From Thermoanaerobaculia bacterium (GTDB lineage: Bacteria; Acidobacteriota; Thermoanaerobaculia; Multivoradales; UBA5704), in assembly GCA_035536935.1 (NCBI GenBank), contig DATLNC010000143.1, forward strand, positions 2,240-66,239: 64,000 nt of DNA. Direction: 5' to 3'. The notes beneath the pieces were generated by a model, which was not told the origin of the DNA, did no database searches, and saw only the letters and a list, made by a program, of their open reading frames with translations. Each line of letters begins with the position of its first letter. Positions within the stretch are counted from its first letter, which is position 1. Positions 7,084 to 45,649 of this stretch are shown in pieces. The translations under genes and the position numbers were made by a program.

Positions 7084-7836
7084 ATGGACCGGATCGATCT
7101 CGGGGCCTCCCATCTCGCCGTGCAGCTCGACGCCCCGCCAGGCGCCAGCGACTTCTGCCTCCTCTATCTCCATGGCTTCGGATCGGTGCAGACCGGCGAG
7201 AAGGCCGACTTCTTCCGGCAGAAGGCTCTGGAGAGCGGCTTCGCCTTCTGCTCTTTCGACTTCCAGGGTCACGGCCAGTCCGGCGGCACCATGCAAGGTC
7301 TCACCCTTTCCCGAAACCTCCAGGACGTGGCCCGGGTGCATGACTATGTGAGGGAGAGGGGCTACGACCGGGTCTGCCTGCTCGGCTCCTCGATGGGAGG
7401 AGGCACGGCCCTCTGGTACTCGGCGCTCCATCCGGACGAGGTCGTCGCCGGCCTCCACATCGCACCGGCTCTCCAGTTCGAGAGGAGCCTCACGGCCTGG
7501 GCCGGACCCGAGCGCTGCCGGACCTGGCAGGAGACCGGAACGATCCACTTCGAGAACGACCTCGTCTCCTGCGAGCTCGGCTGGGACCTGATCGAAGACC
7601 TCCGGCGCCACGCCTTCGAAGACCTACTTCACCAGTACCGGACCCCCGCCCTCCTCCTCCAGGGCAAGCTCGACACCTCCGTCCCCTGGAAGGATGTTGC
7701 CGACTTCGCCACTCGCTGCGCCTATCCCGGCATCGAGCTCCACCTCTTCGCCGACGGCGACCACCGCCTCACCGACCGCAAGGACCGGCTGTGGCAGCTC
7801 ATGCTGGAATTCCTGCGGGGACGCATGTTGCTCTAA
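7084..7836 (+). CDS. alpha/beta-fold hydrolase
   Basis: Nucleophile elbow GSSMGG and an HG-type oxyanion region (LYLHGFGS). Start ATG 7084 (MDRIDLG) was chosen because the longer ORF from 6796 overlaps the converging membrane-protein gene. Confidence 0.85.
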   Translation: MDRIDLGASHLAVQLDAPPGASDFCLLYLHGFGSVQTGEKADFFRQKALESGFAFCSFDFQGHGQSGGTMQGLTLSRNLQDVARVHDYVRERGYDRVCLLGSSMGGGTALWYSALHPDEVVAGLHIAPALQFERSLTAWAGPERCRTWQETGTIHFENDLVSCELGWDLIEDLRRHAFEDLLHQYRTPALLLQGKLDTSVPWKDVADFATRCAYPGIELHLFADGDHRLTDRKDRLWQLMLEFLRGRMLL

Positions 7837-7859
7837 TATCTTAAGCAGGTGCACTACCT

Positions 7860-9086
7860 ATGAAGTTTCATCCTCACGACCTTCTGCTTCTGGAAGCCTT
7901 CGGCTCTCTGTCCCGCGAGCAGCGTCGCCCGGTCATTGGACACCTTGAACAGTGCACGAGATGCCGGGAGAGGCTCAAAACTCTGCACCGCCAGAGAACG
8001 GGCGCGCTTTCCAAGAGGATTGCAGGCCTGACCAAGCCACCCGAATCGCCCGGCGATTATGACTCTGCCCTCGATCAAGCCATGCAACGCTTCCGATCTC
8101 GCCAAGCTGCCTTGGAACAGGAACGGAGCGAGGCCGTAGATCTCTTCGCGAAACTGCTGGAGGAGTCGCCAGAACAACGGGAAGTGCTCGTACAGAAGAG
8201 TCCAAAGTTCCGGACCTGGGGCCTTCTGGAGCTTGTCTTGGATGAGGGAAGGACGGCTACGCAGAAGGCCCCCACGAGCGGCGAGCCTTTGGTCCGGCTC
8301 GCCCTCACACTAGCGGACCATCTAGATGAAGCCTACTACGGCAGAGCACGGATCGACGATCTTCGGGCACGTGCCTGGTCAGTCCTCGGAAATACGCTCA
8401 GACTGAGATTCGAGCTCCCGAGTGCTGAAGCGGCATTTGAAACCGCCGAACGCCACCTCCGCAGAGGAACGGGTGACCCACTGGAACGAGCCGGCATTTC
8501 GGATTTTAGGGCGTCCCTGTGGAGAGCACAGGGTAAACTCGATCAGGCTATGCGGCTCCTAGAGCGTGCGTTTGCCATCTATACCGAAGCCGGGGATCGG
8601 CACAAAGCCGGCAAGGTCCTCCTCAACATGGACTTGGTGCACCATTCCGCTGGCCATCCCTTGGATGGCATCCCCTTACTTCATCGAGCTCTCGAACTCA
8701 TTCATCCTCTGCACAGCCCCACGTATCTGCTCAACGCCTGGCATAACCTAGCCAGCAATCTGACGAAAGCTGGACGTTACATGGAGGCGCAAGGTGCTTT
8801 CCTGAGAGCTCGCTCACTCTATGGCGGATACCCTGGCTACCCAGACCGAGCCTTGGTCTCGAAGAGTTTTTGGATTGAGGGTCGGCTCGCCTTGGGACGG
8901 GGTCAATTCAGGGAGGCACAAGAACTCCTCCGGAAAGCACAAGATGGACTAGCCGCTCATGGACTCCCATCCGCTACAGCACAAGTGGAGGAGGAAATGA
9001 GAGCCGTCCGCGCTGGGCAGGACCGGGAACGAGCCCGCAGACGGCGGCAGCCGGTTCCTGCCGATCCGAAAAGCGGCGTTCGGTAG
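7860..9086 (+). CDS. soluble TPR-like protein with N-terminal HxxxCxxC (zf-HC2 anti-sigma-type) motif
   Basis: 408 aa with no TM segment. HLEQCTRC is encoded at nt 7941-7964. It is a clear paralog of CDS 9663..10847 (shared blocks such as F.TWG, DLRARAW, RFEL, GIPLL and W.EG). Confidence 0.8.
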   Translation: MKFHPHDLLLLEAFGSLSREQRRPVIGHLEQCTRCRERLKTLHRQRTGALSKRIAGLTKPPESPGDYDSALDQAMQRFRSRQAALEQERSEAVDLFAKLLEESPEQREVLVQKSPKFRTWGLLELVLDEGRTATQKAPTSGEPLVRLALTLADHLDEAYYGRARIDDLRARAWSVLGNTLRLRFELPSAEAAFETAERHLRRGTGDPLERAGISDFRASLWRAQGKLDQAMRLLERAFAIYTEAGDRHKAGKVLLNMDLVHHSAGHPLDGIPLLHRALELIHPLHSPTYLLNAWHNLASNLTKAGRYMEAQGAFLRARSLYGGYPGYPDRALVSKSFWIEGRLALGRGQFREAQELLRKAQDGLAAHGLPSATAQVEEEMRAVRAGQDRERARRRRQPVPADPKSGVR

Positions 9087-9232
9087 CTTGCTTAGAGCTA
9101 GTGCGGGGCAAATCGCTGGCCTGAGAAGACCCCCCTTTCCCGCTTTTAGGGAAAAGTGCCACTCTTTCCAGTAGAGGGACGCCCGGCGGCCATCATGGCA
9201 CGCCATTTTGGCAGTCCAAAGGGGAGGATTTT

Positions 9233-9472
9233 ATGCTTCGAAAGGTCGGTTTTCTCGCTTTGGTCCTAGCTTTGATCCTGCTGGTTTCCGGTGGCGCCCA
9301 GGCGATGCCTCTGGCAGGGTCGGCACGGGCTGCCGAGTCCCATGGAATCCTGGATCGATTCTGGGACTGGTTCGGATCTCTCTTTCAGGGCCATTCAGCG
9401 TCGAACGGTCAGCCGCAAGCGATCTGGGCCCAGGACGGGAGCCATATCGATCCTAACGGCGGACCACACTAA
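9233..9472 (+). CDS. small secreted peptide precursor (79 aa, Trp/Phe-rich mature part)
   Basis: Strong SD (AAGGGGAGGA) lies 5 nt upstream of the ATG. Signal peptide is MLRKVGFLALVLALILLVSGGAQA. The mature region contains DRFWDWFGSLFQGH. A Rho-independent terminator follows directly. Confidence 0.65.
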   Translation: MLRKVGFLALVLALILLVSGGAQAMPLAGSARAAESHGILDRFWDWFGSLFQGHSASNGQPQAIWAQDGSHIDPNGGPH

Positions 9473-9481
9473 ATCTGTGTC

Positions 9482-9516
9482 GCGCCGGATTCGCTTCGCT
9501 TCCGGCGCACTTTTTT
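9482..9516 (+). terminator. Rho-independent terminator
   Basis: Stem GCGCCGGA (9482-9489) pairs with TCCGGCGC (9501-9508), with an 11-nt loop, followed by TTTTTT (9511-9516). It starts 10 nt after the peptide stop codon. Confidence 0.75.
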
Positions 9517-9662
9517 GTCCCGTTTTTCGCGTCCCAAGCATCTTTTCTTTTAGATGCCACTCTTGTACCTATCTCATACACCGTTCAGGCAGCACTTCCG
9601 CCGTAATCACGGCCGTTTGCGGGAGAACTGCATTCGATTGAAGACCTTTGGAGGGTTTAGCA

Positions 9663-10847
9663 ATGAGGACTCACCCCCCTGACTATGACGCAGCTCTGAG
9701 GATCAACGCCCGCCGCCTCAATGAGTTACAGGCGGCCTACCGAGAGGAGCGGGTGGCAGCAAAGGGGCTGGTTGCTGAGCTCGCGCGACACCCGGCGGTG
9801 AGGCAGCGCATCCTGATAGCCAACCATCCCCGGTTCCACACCTGGGGTGTATTCGAGCATCTGATCGAGACCAGTCGCGAAGAGACCTCAAAGAACCCGA
9901 AGGGCGCGGAGGAATTGGCAAAGCTCGCCCTGGACCTGTCGGAGCACCTTGACACCTCCGTTTACGGGGTCCAGGCAATAGAGGATCTGCGAGCCAGAGC
10001 CTGGGCCTATATCGGCAACGCGCACCGGGTCCGATTCGAGCTACAGGGGGCGCAGGATGCGCTCGACCGTGCACTCCTCCACCTGCGTAAAGGGACGCGG
10101 GAGCCCTGGGAGCTCGCCGTCTGGCTGGACCTCAAAGCTTCTCTGCTCCGAGCCCAAAGACGTTTCGACGAGGCCATGCGGCTGCTCAAACGCGCCCTGA
10201 TTCTCTTCCTGGCCGTCGGAGACCGCCAGCGAGCAGGGCGCACTCTGATCAGCATGGACAACGTTCTCCACCGTGCAGGACAACCCGAGAAAGGTATCCC
10301 CCTTCTGTACCAGGCCCTCGATCTCATCGATCCAGAACAGGACCCCAGGCTTCTCTTCAGCGCCAAGCACAACCTCATCGACAACCTTGTCGATGCTGGC
10401 CGGAACCTGGAGGCCCAGAGACTCCTGATGCAGGCTAGTTCCCTCTATCGTCGCTTTGACGAGCCCTCATTCCGCAACCGCCGTTGCTGGGTCGAGGGCA
10501 AGATTGCACATGGGGTCGGACAGCCGGAAAGGGCGGAGGAGCTTCTCTTAAGGGCCAGGACCGGGTTCCAAGAGCAGGACGCAGCGTATGAAATCGCCCT
10601 CGTCTCGCTCGAGCTCGCGGGCCTTTACGCCGAACAGGGGCGCACGGCCGAAATGAAGCAGCTCGCCGAGGAAATGGTCCCGATCTTCTCCTCCCGCCAG
10701 ATCCATCGTGAAGCCCTCGCCGCTCTCTCGCTGTGGTGCCAGGCCGTCCACACCGAGACGGCAGGTGCGGAGCTCGCAGCCCAGGTGGCCTGCGCGATCA
10801 GACGGAGCCGCGAGGAGCAGAGTCTTTCCGGTCAGGACGTCGTCTAG
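9663..10847 (+). CDS. soluble TPR-like protein, paralog of 7860..9086 lacking the zinc motif
   Basis: ATG 9663 lies 9 nt downstream of GGAGGG (the ORF track begins at TTG 9648). Collinear similarity to the upstream paralog runs through most of its length, and it has a longer C-terminus. Confidence 0.8.
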   Translation: MRTHPPDYDAALRINARRLNELQAAYREERVAAKGLVAELARHPAVRQRILIANHPRFHTWGVFEHLIETSREETSKNPKGAEELAKLALDLSEHLDTSVYGVQAIEDLRARAWAYIGNAHRVRFELQGAQDALDRALLHLRKGTREPWELAVWLDLKASLLRAQRRFDEAMRLLKRALILFLAVGDRQRAGRTLISMDNVLHRAGQPEKGIPLLYQALDLIDPEQDPRLLFSAKHNLIDNLVDAGRNLEAQRLLMQASSLYRRFDEPSFRNRRCWVEGKIAHGVGQPERAEELLLRARTGFQEQDAAYEIALVSLELAGLYAEQGRTAEMKQLAEEMVPIFSSRQIHREALAALSLWCQAVHTETAGAELAAQVACAIRRSREEQSLSGQDVV

Positions 10848-10874
10848 AGAATCCAGAAAGACCAACAGGACAAC

Positions 10875-10928
10875 AAGGACATCAAGGACTCCAAGGCTTC
10901 CGCGTCCTTGAAGTCCTTGATGTCCCTT
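10875..10928. repeat. long imperfect inverted repeat (hairpin) built from AAGGAC-like words
   Basis: AAGGACATCAAGGACT (10875-10890) is complementary to AGTCCTTGATGTCC(C)TT (10912-10928). Inner arms CCAAGG/CCTTGA extend the stem. It sits just after the stop of 9663..10847. Confidence 0.6.
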
Positions 10929-10950
10929 TGGTCCTTCCCCCAAAAACAAC

Positions 10951-10974
10951 AAGCCCCCCGTCGCCGGGGGGCTT
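10951..10974 (-). terminator. Rho-independent terminator for the cupredoxin-like lipoprotein gene
   Basis: 10-bp stem AAGCCCCCCG/CGGGGGGCTT with a 4-nt loop. On the minus strand it is followed by GTTGTTTTTG. Confidence 0.65.
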
Positions 10975-11002
10975 GCAACGACCCTCTGCTGACGGGCCGG
11001 TT

Positions 11003-45032: not shown

Positions 45033-45649
45033 GGTTCCAACCTCCTTTTCGGTCCGAGCCTCACCTGCTCGTATCCTTCCCGAAACGCCTGCCGCGACCG
45101 GGTGAGCAGCGATTCGGCCGCCTTCGCTCCCACCCGGAGGCGCTCGGCGATCTCCTTGACGGAAACCCGCTCGACATACTTCCACTCCAGGGCGCGGGCG
45201 TAGCGCGGAGGGAGGAGGTCGAGGGCGGCGTGAACGAGCCGGACTTCCTCCTTGCGCGCCAGGGCTCCCTCCGGCGGGTCCCTGTCGGAGGCGATGTCCT
45301 CCTCCAGCTCGACCACTCTCGGCTGCCGCTTCTTCGATCGAAAACCCATCCGGATCTCATTGCGGCAGCAAGCGCAGAGCCATCCGAGCAGAGGCGCCTC
45401 GCCGCGGAAGGTCCCCAGCTTCGCGAGTGCCTTGCACACCGTGGTCTGCACGACCTCGCGGGCGAGCTCGGTGTCACCACCAAGGCGCGACAAGGCGAAG
45501 CGGTAGAGGCCGGGGAAGTACTCGTCCGCGAACTCCTCCATCGCCGCCTCGTCGCCGGCGAGCATGCGCTCGACCAGGGCCTTCTCTTCGAGCCTCAGGT
45601 CAGAATCGGAAACCGATTCCGAGATGCCCGCCGAGGGCAAGATAGTCAT
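45029..45649 (-). CDS. ECF (sigma-70 family) RNA polymerase sigma factor
   Basis: Region 2 is LVERMLAGDEAAMEEFADEYFPGLYRFAL. Region 4 is LPPRYARALEWKYVERVSVKEIAERL. The annotated start overlaps the upstream OMP gene by 50 nt, so the exact start is uncertain. Confidence 0.88.
   Translation of the reverse strand: MTILPSAGISESVSDSDLRLEEKALVERMLAGDEAAMEEFADEYFPGLYRFALSRLGGDTELAREVVQTTVCKALAKLGTFRGEAPLLGWLCACCRNEIRMGFRSKKRQPRVVELEEDIASDRDPPEGALARKEEVRLVHAALDLLPPRYARALEWKYVERVSVKEIAERLRVGAKAAESLLTRSRQAFREGYEQVRLGPKRRLEP

Follow-up and report, generated by a model that had tools for sequence, protein, structure and literature searches.

The locus considered here lies on contig DATLNC010000143.1 of a 6.39-Mb metagenome-assembled genome of the class Thermoanaerobaculia (Acidobacteriota; assembly GCA_035536935.1, hereafter the host genome), within a stretch of 64,000 nucleotides that was analysed as a whole and is called the window below. 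It consists of two paralogous genes for tetratricopeptide repeat (TPR) proteins, TPR-A and TPR-B, which bracket a small gene for a predicted secreted peptide, with gaps of 146 nt between TPR-A and the peptide gene and of 190 nt between the peptide gene and TPR-B (Table 1). A first, sequence-only reading, made without database searches, had pointed out these three coding sequences, and the open reading frame (ORF) calls place all of them where it had put them. TPR-A and TPR-B align with 43% identity over 328 aa (E = 4e-82), and the blocks by which they had been recognized as collinear paralogs (F.TWG, DLRARAW, RFEL, GIPLL and W.EG) are all visible in the pairwise alignment; moreover, both exceed the gathering score of the Pfam family TPR_12 (47.6 bits for TPR-A and 35.7 bits for TPR-B; gathering score 30.1). 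Three further observations of the same reading were borne out: the lack of transmembrane segments in the two TPR proteins (maximal Kyte-Doolittle means over 19 residues of 0.56 in TPR-A and 1.07 in TPR-B, vs. 2.24 in the N-terminus of the peptide), a G+C content lower than that of the flanks (G+C at third codon positions, GC3, of 0.60 in TPR-A, 0.63 in the peptide gene and 0.74 in TPR-B, vs. 0.87-0.90 in the flanking genes, the mean of the other TPR-peptide family members of the genome being 0.84) and the absence of an adjacent sigma factor gene, the closest Sigma70_r2 match in the window being found about 34 kb away (45326-45526, minus strand).

Table 1. Genes and sequence features of the peptide-TPR locus (window coordinates).
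Feature	Position	Strand	Description
TPR-A gene	7860-9086	+	408-aa ORF; predicted cytoplasmic protein with a zinc anti-sigma (ZAS) head and TPRs (ZAS-TPR)
Zinc-ligand set of TPR-A	7869-7964	+	H4 (7869-7871), and H28, C32 and C35 in HLEQCTRC (7941-7964)
Conserved 5' region of the peptide gene	9158-9232	+	box, tiered hairpin and Shine-Dalgarno (SD) sequence
Box (T)GCCACTCTT	9158-9166	+	footprint in orthologous 5' regions
Tiered hairpin, window apex CGGCC-AUCAU-GGC	~9176-9217	+	ends just before the SD
SD GGGGAGGA	9221-9228	+	four bases before the ATG of the peptide gene
Peptide gene	9233-9472	+	79-aa ORF; predicted pro-peptide
Peptide, signal-peptide-like part	residues 1-24	+	ends in GGAQA, followed by MP
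Peptide, Trp-rich amphipathic segment D41-G53, DRFWDWFGSLFQG	9353-9391	+	within the peptide gene
Peptide, C-terminal unit G69-G76, GSHIDPNG	9437-9460	+	within the peptide gene
Intrinsic terminator, GCGCCGG…CCGGCGC and T-run	9482-9516	+	hairpin 9482-9508, -16.8 kcal/mol
Promoter/leader region of TPR-B	9517-9662	+	conserved TTGTCCCG element; putative function, from the alignment of orthologous spacers
Second copy of the 10-mer TGCCACTCTT	9555-9564	+	upstream of TPR-B; first copy upstream of the peptide gene
TPR-B gene	9663-10847	+	394-aa ORF; alternative in-frame TTG start at 9648
Long near-perfect hairpin, ~36 bp	10856-10937	.	directly 3' of the TPR-B stop, in a convergent intergenic region

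The N-terminus of TPR-A indeed features the HLEQCTRC motif in which the sequence-only reading had recognized the signature of zinc anti-sigma factors, and TPR-B is devoid of any HxxxCxxC motif, also as described. The four ligands (H4, H28, C32 and C35 in TPR-A numbering) are near-invariant in 25-31 family members, among paralogs as well as orthologues. The orthologues L066, L067 and L069 share all four with the window, and the whole zinc head of TPR-A is nearly unchanged in them. The Pfam model zf-HC2 (gathering score 22.2) yields 16.2 bits on the whole TPR-A protein and 21.3 bits on its isolated N-terminus; 12 of 25 family members match this model (best E-value 8.9e-7). Moreover, a family profile of the first ~60 residues has RslA (4.4e-5), ChrR (9.4e-5), DdvA (3e-4) and RsiW (0.012) as its top matches in the PDB, the alignment to ChrR starting at residue 1 with the ligands in register. 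By its motif, TPR-A is a protein of the ZAS type, in line with the matches of the family profile, and it may bind a sigma factor.

The resemblance to the ZAS factors ChrR, RslA and RsrA extends to the N-terminal helices with their H…H-x3(4)-C-x2-C ligands, in register with those of ChrR and RslA, to the soluble nature of the protein, shared with RsrA and ChrR, and to the translational coupling of paralogs and distant relatives of TPR-A to a gene for a sigma factor of the extracytoplasmic function (ECF) type. The TPR-A family nevertheless differs from these factors in its sensor, a TPR solenoid of ~330 aa where ChrR has a cupin and RsrA has nothing, in the absence of an adjacent sigma gene from most of its copies (window locus included), and in the gene for a small secreted peptide that travels with the anti-sigma gene. 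A zinc head and a TPR sensor are also combined in the DdvA-DdvS pair of Myxococcus xanthus, in which the anti-sigma factor couples a zinc three-helix head of the CHCC type with a large sensor that includes TPRs; DdvA spans the membrane, with its TPR-CHAT domain in the periplasm, and proteolysis is the proposed route of release (PMC11506125). The head of DdvA is matched by our N-terminal profile (E = 3e-4), whereas TPR-A and TPR-B have neither a transmembrane helix between head and TPR region nor a CHAT domain, and DdvA has no associated peptide gene.

For the small protein, the signal-peptide-like N-terminus ending in AQA that had been noticed at first sight was recovered as a set of features suggestive of Sec export, i.e., a basic n-region, a hydrophobic core and a near-invariant A-x-A site (A24). 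A profile built from 16 small ORFs located upstream of TPR paralogs retrieved 25 peptide genes in the host genome (E<1e-3), all sharing the same anatomy: a Sec-type signal with A-x-A, a Trp-rich amphipathic segment (e.g., DRFWDWFGSLFQG, LERLWNWVEHLWSG and AWDWLGRLWSG), a Pro/Gly-rich linker and a C-terminal unit, G-x-x-(I/L/M)-D-P-(N/D)-G, present in 1-5 copies at or near the C-terminus. Pairs of Cys residues occur in some of these paralogs. None of 29 peptide members matched any Pfam or NCBIfam model, and PADLOC likewise returned nothing. When the profile was searched against public data (1.84 billion cluster representatives), 3,343 peptide clusters were found at E<=1e-3 and 301 at E<=1e-10, most members being 73-144 aa long, and a few being polyproteins with up to ~30 units. 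Three of these long secreted polyproteins (P0025, of 731 aa, P0027 and P0147) have ~8-30 tandem G-x-G-(I/L)-D-P-N-G-(R/K) units, identical in kind to those of the small peptides and spaced by basic residues, like the units of multi-copy hormone precursors.

The association of the peptide gene with a TPR gene is almost without exception. The host genome has about 38-41 TPR paralogs, the zinc motif being present in 20, and 24 of its 25 peptide genes adjoin one of these paralogs, the remaining one sitting at a contig end. In 20 of the 25 cases, the peptide gene immediately precedes a TPR paralog of the same orientation, at a distance of 39-379 nt, and four peptide genes are convergent with TPR paralogs whose N-terminus looks, by eye, like a helix-turn-helix (HTH) domain of the XRE type. 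At the loci orthologous to the window, which span 42-95% identity, a peptide ORF lies upstream of the TPR-B orthologue in 26 cases out of 26. The synteny that the sequence-only reading had proposed to look for, that of a signal-peptide ORF beside TPR homologues, is thus found both among orthologues and among paralogs. The receptor/pro-peptide layout that it had described is a real, selected and recurrent unit, but this unit consists of the peptide gene and a single TPR gene; the bracketing by two TPR paralogs, although present in the window, is a derived state of one genus-level clade. As for the taxonomic range, all ten genomes of the same genus have 46 to at least 56 TPR copies, those of the same family 27 to at least 56 and those of the same order 0-29, while at E<=1e-40 the TPR family is detected in 5 of 121 Acidobacteriota genomes, all five in the class Thermoanaerobaculia. 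The peptide-TPR family is confined to this class, and its peptide and TPR genes have been passed on and duplicated together.

Clustering of the ORFs within 5 kb of the about 38 cassettes of the host genome revealed no recurring immunity gene, exporter, modifying enzyme or secretion system. The neighbours that do recur are HTH proteins of the XRE type, sigma factors of the subfamily considered below, one unrelated ABC ATPase and a few small uncharacterised ORFs. Of the 16 members of the XRE-type family, six have a TPR gene at less than 1.5 kb, against an expectation of ~0.4. These proteins of ~150 aa are, in six cases, encoded convergently to and directly downstream of ZAS-TPR genes (C180:6318-6812, C46:4346-4807, C81:44347-44805, and on contigs C189, C63 and C224), and an HTH-like segment precedes the sigma gene in the distant relatives L063 and L065; they may constitute a fourth component of the module. 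Finally, in the TPR paralogs at C55:846-5253 and C64:349-2439, an XRE-like HTH (by eye) replaces the zinc head, which results in a PlcR-like architecture, and these paralogs are paired with convergent genes for Cys-rich peptides with repeated EGCHIDPDGRC units.

The connection to sigma factors comes from relatives of the window locus. A distinct ECF subfamily has 7 members in the host genome, 5 of which adjoin ZAS-TPR genes (three on contig C82 and one each on C141 and C254), the other two being on C125 and C40; both C141 and C82 carry the order peptide, sigma, ZAS-TPR, with an 8-nt overlap between the sigma and TPR genes on C141. In distant families of the class, in which the TPR family has 1-4 copies, most loci have an ECF sigma gene just ahead of the ZAS-TPR gene (L059, L062, L063, L064 and L065). 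At five of seven loci in these families, the ZAS-TPR gene is also closely followed by a small signal-peptide ORF, and in three of those five (L062, L063 and L065) the ECF sigma gene immediately precedes the ZAS-TPR gene. The small ORFs of the distant families encode an amphipathic helix and a Pro-containing C-terminal motif, without DPNG. Owing to these operons, the three-part module of sigma factor, soluble ZAS-TPR protein and secreted peptide looks ancestral, and the ancestral operon likely ran from the ECF sigma gene to the ZAS-TPR gene and then to the small secreted peptide; in the expanded lineage, the peptide gene looks to have been relocated to the upstream side and the sigma gene to have been lost from most copies. 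The output of the system, given as unknown in the sequence-only reading, is thus supplied in principle by relatives that are operonic with the ECF subfamily, although no sigma gene occurs at the window locus. A side observation concerns an ORF of ~100 codons between the peptide and TPR genes at L033, L039 and L042, and also in the host genome (C296:54248-54625), which resembles, by eye, only the sigma-2 half of the associated ECF subfamily (…GISEARAQAIVEDACLTLASKRRLRLQNPEGWLLRTIIDACRR) and may be a decaying or minimal sigma remnant.

If the pair of one peptide gene and one TPR gene is the rule, the second TPR gene of the window calls for an explanation. In the sister lineages L022-L025, a single full-length ZAS-TPR protein (434-440 aa) is encoded downstream of the peptide gene, and there is no counterpart of TPR-A. 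Compared to such proteins, TPR-B has lost its zinc core through an in-frame deletion of 41 residues (MRTHPPD directly joined to YDAAL, vs. MKTHPPDQLLRRFLRSSGDRMPPILEHLETCSKCLQKLEVFREQRSAAYDAAL in L022). TPR-A has an N-terminus close to that of the full-length proteins (MKFHPHDLLLLEAFGSLSREQ…HLEQCTRC), but is devoid of the last ~60 residues of the family and ends in an Arg/Lys-rich tail. The C-terminal extension that had been considered as an extra of TPR-B is therefore real (helices 308-387 of the structure model described below), yet it is the normal C-terminus of the family, to which TPR-A is the exception. Altogether, the bracket goes back to a duplication with subsequent complementary losses in one genus-level clade.

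At face value, TPR-A might also pass for a private, truncated insertion, since L021, the closest genome locus (flanks with 92-94% DNA identity to the window), lacks exactly window positions 7822-9101, located between two copies of the 7-bp microhomology TGCGGGG that flank the indel, and since 41 genomes of the family offer no match above 46% identity (<=46%). This idea is ruled out by nine TPR-A-like metagenome proteins (62-79% identity, 375-408 aa) and by four contigs, L066, L067, L068 and L069, from at least three metagenomic lineages, which keep the split layout with TPR-A orthologues of 64-79% identity in the same synteny. On all four contigs, the order is hydrolase, TPR-A, peptide, ZAS-less TPR-B, lipoprotein, cytochrome. 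L021 is nested within the clade of these split-layout contigs, which stand farther from the window (TPR-B identities of 92% and 85%, vs. 95% in L021), so that it is L021 that lost TPR-A secondarily by deletion. All three genes are under purifying selection, with dN/dS of 0.20-0.26 for TPR-A, 0.22-0.44 for the peptide gene and 0.10-0.19 for TPR-B. The dS of TPR-A (0.84-1.02) is the highest of the genes compared, its neighbours reaching 0.30-0.38 with respect to L066, i.e., less than half as much, and 0.44-0.80 with respect to L067; together with its low GC3, this could reflect allelic replacement or recombination.

Structure prediction with AlphaFold2 was confident for both TPR proteins (mean predicted local distance difference test score, pLDDT, of 91.2 for TPR-A, which is all-helical, and of 90.1 for TPR-B, with a predicted template modelling score, pTM, of 0.84), and both models are continuous soluble helical solenoids. 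In that of TPR-A, three N-terminal helices and a long connector helix precede the TPR solenoid, while that of TPR-B combines the solenoid with two further helical hairpins. A Foldseek comparison of TPR-A to the PDB returned BtubC, the kinesin light chain (KLC) and LGN at ~1e-5, and Rap proteins at ~1e-4. For TPR-B, LGN came first (2e-7), and the best bacterial match was the Rap-pheromone complex Rap-CSF (4gyo, 9e-6; template modelling scores of 0.56/0.61 over 327 aligned columns), followed by RapH, RapF, RapI, phage Raps with bound pheromones and domain III of MalT. By sequence search, RapF appeared at 5e-6 among generic TPR proteins. Because LGN and KLC score above Rap, the resemblance is to peptide-binding TPRs in general, and the modelled fold supports a way of working like that of peptide-binding TPRs rather than a descent from known pheromone receptors.

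Such receptors are those of the RRNPP family, to which the sequence-only reading had compared the locus. The computational signature of RRNPP systems rests on five criteria, i.e., a pro-peptide of 10-100 aa, Sec export, a receptor of 250-500 aa, TPRs and direct neighbourhood of the two genes (PMC10075063). With its peptide of 79 aa, its TPR proteins of 408 and 394 aa, both above the gathering score of TPR_12, and its directly neighbouring genes, the window locus agrees with all five at the level of sequence analysis, Sec export being a prediction from features of the N-terminus. Hence, the idea of a module in the RRNPP style holds for the layout of the signature and for a conserved ZAS-type head, but the likeness of the receptors to those of RRNPP is one of TPR proteins in general, and their output is a ZAS head or absent, with neither an HTH domain nor the N-terminal bundle of Rap proteins. 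Since receptor homology and output domain both set it apart, we do not file the locus as an RRNPP member.

The likeness to RRNPP/RRNPPA systems (Rap-Phr, NprR-NprX, PlcR-PapR, AimR-AimP), which is one of genes, sequences and models, still goes further than the signature. Beyond the gene for a Sec-type pro-peptide beside that of a cytoplasmic TPR protein of 250-500 aa, it includes a conserved unit at the C-terminus of the precursor, with several copies in some precursors, the many diverging paralogous pairs per genome, the place of Rap as best bacterial structural match of TPR-B and the HTH-TPR variants with adjacent peptide genes in the host genome (C55 and C64). Conversely, the host belongs to a diderm lineage of Acidobacteriota instead of Bacillota, the output of the family is a zinc anti-sigma head or nothing where RRNPP receptors have an HTH or the three-helix bundle of Rap, the D-P-x-G core is common to all paralogs, and the precursors are longer, with a conserved Trp-rich helix. 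A second parallel is ComRS-SigX of streptococci, in which a peptide that is secreted and taken up again, and that frequently has a Trp-Trp pair, acts through a cytoplasmic TPR receptor to switch on an alternative sigma factor. There, ComR is an HTH transcription factor that activates the transcription of sigX, whereas the TPR protein of the present family would hold the sigma factor directly through its anti-sigma head; the overall logic from peptide to TPR protein to sigma factor is the same, by analogy only.

Taking these data together, we hold with evenly divided confidence, as the most likely reading, that the peptide, once exported, serves as cognate ligand to a TPR sensor controlling an ECF sigma factor, and with middling confidence that the locus is one cassette of a signalling family specific to Thermoanaerobaculia, whose three parts are a sigma factor of the ECF type, a soluble anti-sigma factor and a Sec-exported peptide. 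Briefly, the 79-aa precursor would be exported and cut by signal peptidase after AQA, and a released fragment, which probably includes the C-terminal G-x-x-(I/L/M)-D-P-(N/D)-G unit and might comprise the Trp-rich helix as well, would return to the cytoplasm, where it would bind the concave groove of its cognate TPR protein and thereby alter the hold of the ZAS head on an ECF sigma factor encoded elsewhere. Peptide import is possible, as the host genome has four genes for binding proteins of the OppA type (SBP_bac_5). At the window locus, TPR-A keeps the putative sigma-binding head and most of the solenoid, and TPR-B, with the full solenoid and its cap and without a head, would serve as a co-receptor or as a decoy that buffers the peptide. 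With 7 sigma factors of the subfamily facing about 38 TPR paralogs (20 with the zinc motif), the system would have many peptide channels and few sigma factors, so that one-to-one specificity would not reside in promoters and would be placed most simply in the recognition between peptide and TPR protein. The strict and ancient one-to-one linkage of peptide and TPR genes is our main argument for a signalling function, an argument that carries us about halfway.

Several points weigh against this reading. The cell is a diderm; an exported peptide would need processing and re-import and, for cell-cell signalling, also a crossing of the outer membrane. The D-P-x-G core is common to all paralogs, which is the opposite of an orthogonal pheromone core, so that specificity would have to sit in 2-3 flanking positions or in the Trp helix. 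TPR-A taken alone stays below the gathering score of zf-HC2, TPR-B has no head at all and the locus has no nearby sigma gene. In fold searches, the eukaryotic LGN and KLC outscore Rap with the modelled proteins. Finally, the co-duplication of an operon is by itself no proof of a physical interaction.

Instead of being a ligand, the peptide might be the output of the system, i.e., a secreted Trp-rich effector (antimicrobial, surface-active or of an adhesion type) whose gene belongs to the regulon or operon of the sigma/anti-sigma pair, the TPR protein sensing another cytoplasmic cue or protein. Conserved ECF operons often hold their own target genes, an amphipathic Trp-rich helix is typical of membrane-active peptides, and the peptide gene appears geared for high output (strong SD, 5' hairpin, own terminator). 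It also evolves faster than its neighbours (dN/dS of 0.22-0.44), and polyproteins with ~30 DPNG units (P0025) look more structural than pheromone-like. However, the logic of regulator and target gives no reason for a one-to-one linkage when 7 sigma factors face about 38 TPR proteins, and no immunity gene, exporter or modifying enzyme recurs by the cassettes. Moreover, six sensor-only TPR paralogs of the host genome, which have no output domain, still keep a cognate peptide gene of their own. All in all, we judge an effector role, the main rival of the signalling reading, unlikely.

According to a second alternative, the cytoplasmic target of the TPR protein would be the precursor before its export, and the anti-sigma activity would report on how much precursor awaits export, following the model of the TPR class-II chaperones of type III secretion (IpgC, LcrH) or the export logic of FlgM. 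The partners would then meet in the cytoplasm, which makes re-import needless, and the Trp-rich helix, the second conserved element of the peptide, would find a use, the binding of an amphipathic helix in a TPR groove being a known mode (IpgC, PcrH). Yet this scheme does not account for dozens of parallel, diverging copies per genome, the tandem C-terminal units (1-5, up to ~30) suggest a processed product rather than a handle on the precursor, and no dedicated secretion system is linked to the cassettes, so that we regard it as quite improbable. As for a locus for a ribosomally synthesized and post-translationally modified peptide, in which the small ORF would be a modified precursor (e.g., with Trp cross-links) and the TPR protein a scaffold or recognition element, it is hardly credible: the Trp-rich core, the Cys pairs of some paralogs and a weak partial NCBIfam match of the TPR region to the cyclophane-type HaaT (E = 5.6e-6, 24.7 bits vs. 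1125) speak for it, but this match lies far under the cut-off and involves generic TPRs only, the N-terminus is a classical Sec signal with A-x-A and not a leader peptide, and no radical-SAM enzyme, cyclase, protease or exporter recurs near the about 38 loci.

Returning to the peptide as a ligand, a bolder version would have dozens of parallel peptide-pheromone channels per cell, with anti-sigma TPR proteins as receptors and few ECF sigma factors, the window showing two split and cooperating halves, of which TPR-A would hold the sigma factor and TPR-B the ligand; this we put forward tentatively, as somewhat more doubtful than probable. A full-text literature search found no published description of the peptide-TPR family, no paper linking RRNPP with Acidobacteria and none linking Thermoanaerobaculia with sigma factors. 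If true, the proposed signalling would be the first of an RRNPP-like kind in a diderm phylum and would feature the first peptide-gated anti-sigma factor, to which the window adds a conserved split of the receptor, with head-bearing and head-less halves flanking the peptide gene. An exported pro-peptide with an intracellular TPR receptor is usually regarded as a hallmark of Gram-positive Bacillota, and ECF sigma/anti-sigma pairs are usually regarded as stress sensors, not as pheromone receivers; a family joining both, and reaching 27 to at least 56 copies per genome within a soil lineage that is dominant but barely cultured, would change both pictures. Such a family would moreover be a rich natural source of candidate orthogonal switches made of peptide, sensor and sigma factor, among which the split receptor of the window would be a natural dissection of sensor and output functions. 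Since the components are small and soluble, the hypothesis is directly testable in E. coli.

Regarding the regulatory anatomy of the peptide gene, the strong SD and the terminator that the sequence-only reading had assigned to it are both in place, the latter as a hairpin with a T-run. An SD of the GGAGG type precedes the ATG in nearly all of 19 peptide paralogs with an assignable start, and 23 of 24 orthologues have a comparable hairpin with T-run no more than 150 nt from the peptide stop. Further upstream, the box CACTCTT(C/T) is near-invariant in 22-25 orthologous loci, ~65-75 nt before the ATG, and the 5' region of every orthologue folds into the same tiered hairpin, with a conserved apex CGGCC-AUGGN-GGCCG and an outer stem that differs on both arms between lineages (GGGAC/GUCC, GGUGGUCC/GGACCGCC and ACGGGUC/GACCCGU, in individual folds compared by eye). 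No Rfam family matches this leader, and of the five best genome-wide matches of a covariance model built from the orthologues (R1), three are leaders of other peptide paralogs. As a family-wide feature, the hairpin was not retained by folding energy, the paralog leaders not differing significantly from control 5' regions in this GC-rich genome (p = 0.086), so that its support comes from the orthologous set and the covariance-model matches. With its own 5' elements and terminator, next to a TPR gene that has an upstream element of its own, the peptide gene forms a compact, separately terminated transcription unit.

Two other interpretations of the upstream elements were rejected. The spacings of the GCCACTCTT box fit neither a sigma-54 promoter nor a standard -35/-10 promoter. 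Ahead of the TPR gene, the box is restricted to the closest relatives, L021 and L022, and as a cassette-specific operator it finds no place either, since the shared 10-mer occurs only in the window cassette and unrelated pairs of cassettes reach 11-mers by chance.

Lastly, two features flank the locus. On the 5' side, the gene of a predicted cytoplasmic alpha/beta hydrolase (7084-7836) ends 23 nt before TPR-A, with no terminator between them. This protein matches Pfam Hydrolase_4/S33 and, more weakly, the prolyl-oligopeptidase (S9) and X-Pro dipeptidyl-peptidase (S15) families. It adjoins the orthologous cassettes in all loci checked, i.e., L021-L025 (conserved 3' end) and L066-L069 (gene calls), and does not recur at other cassettes. 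On the 3' side, the long hairpin beyond TPR-B (-43.3 kcal/mol, z = -7.0), to which Rfam gives spurious miRNA-like matches on both strands, lies next to the own terminator of the lipoprotein gene (10949-10976, minus strand), and it probably acts as a bidirectional terminator or insulator.

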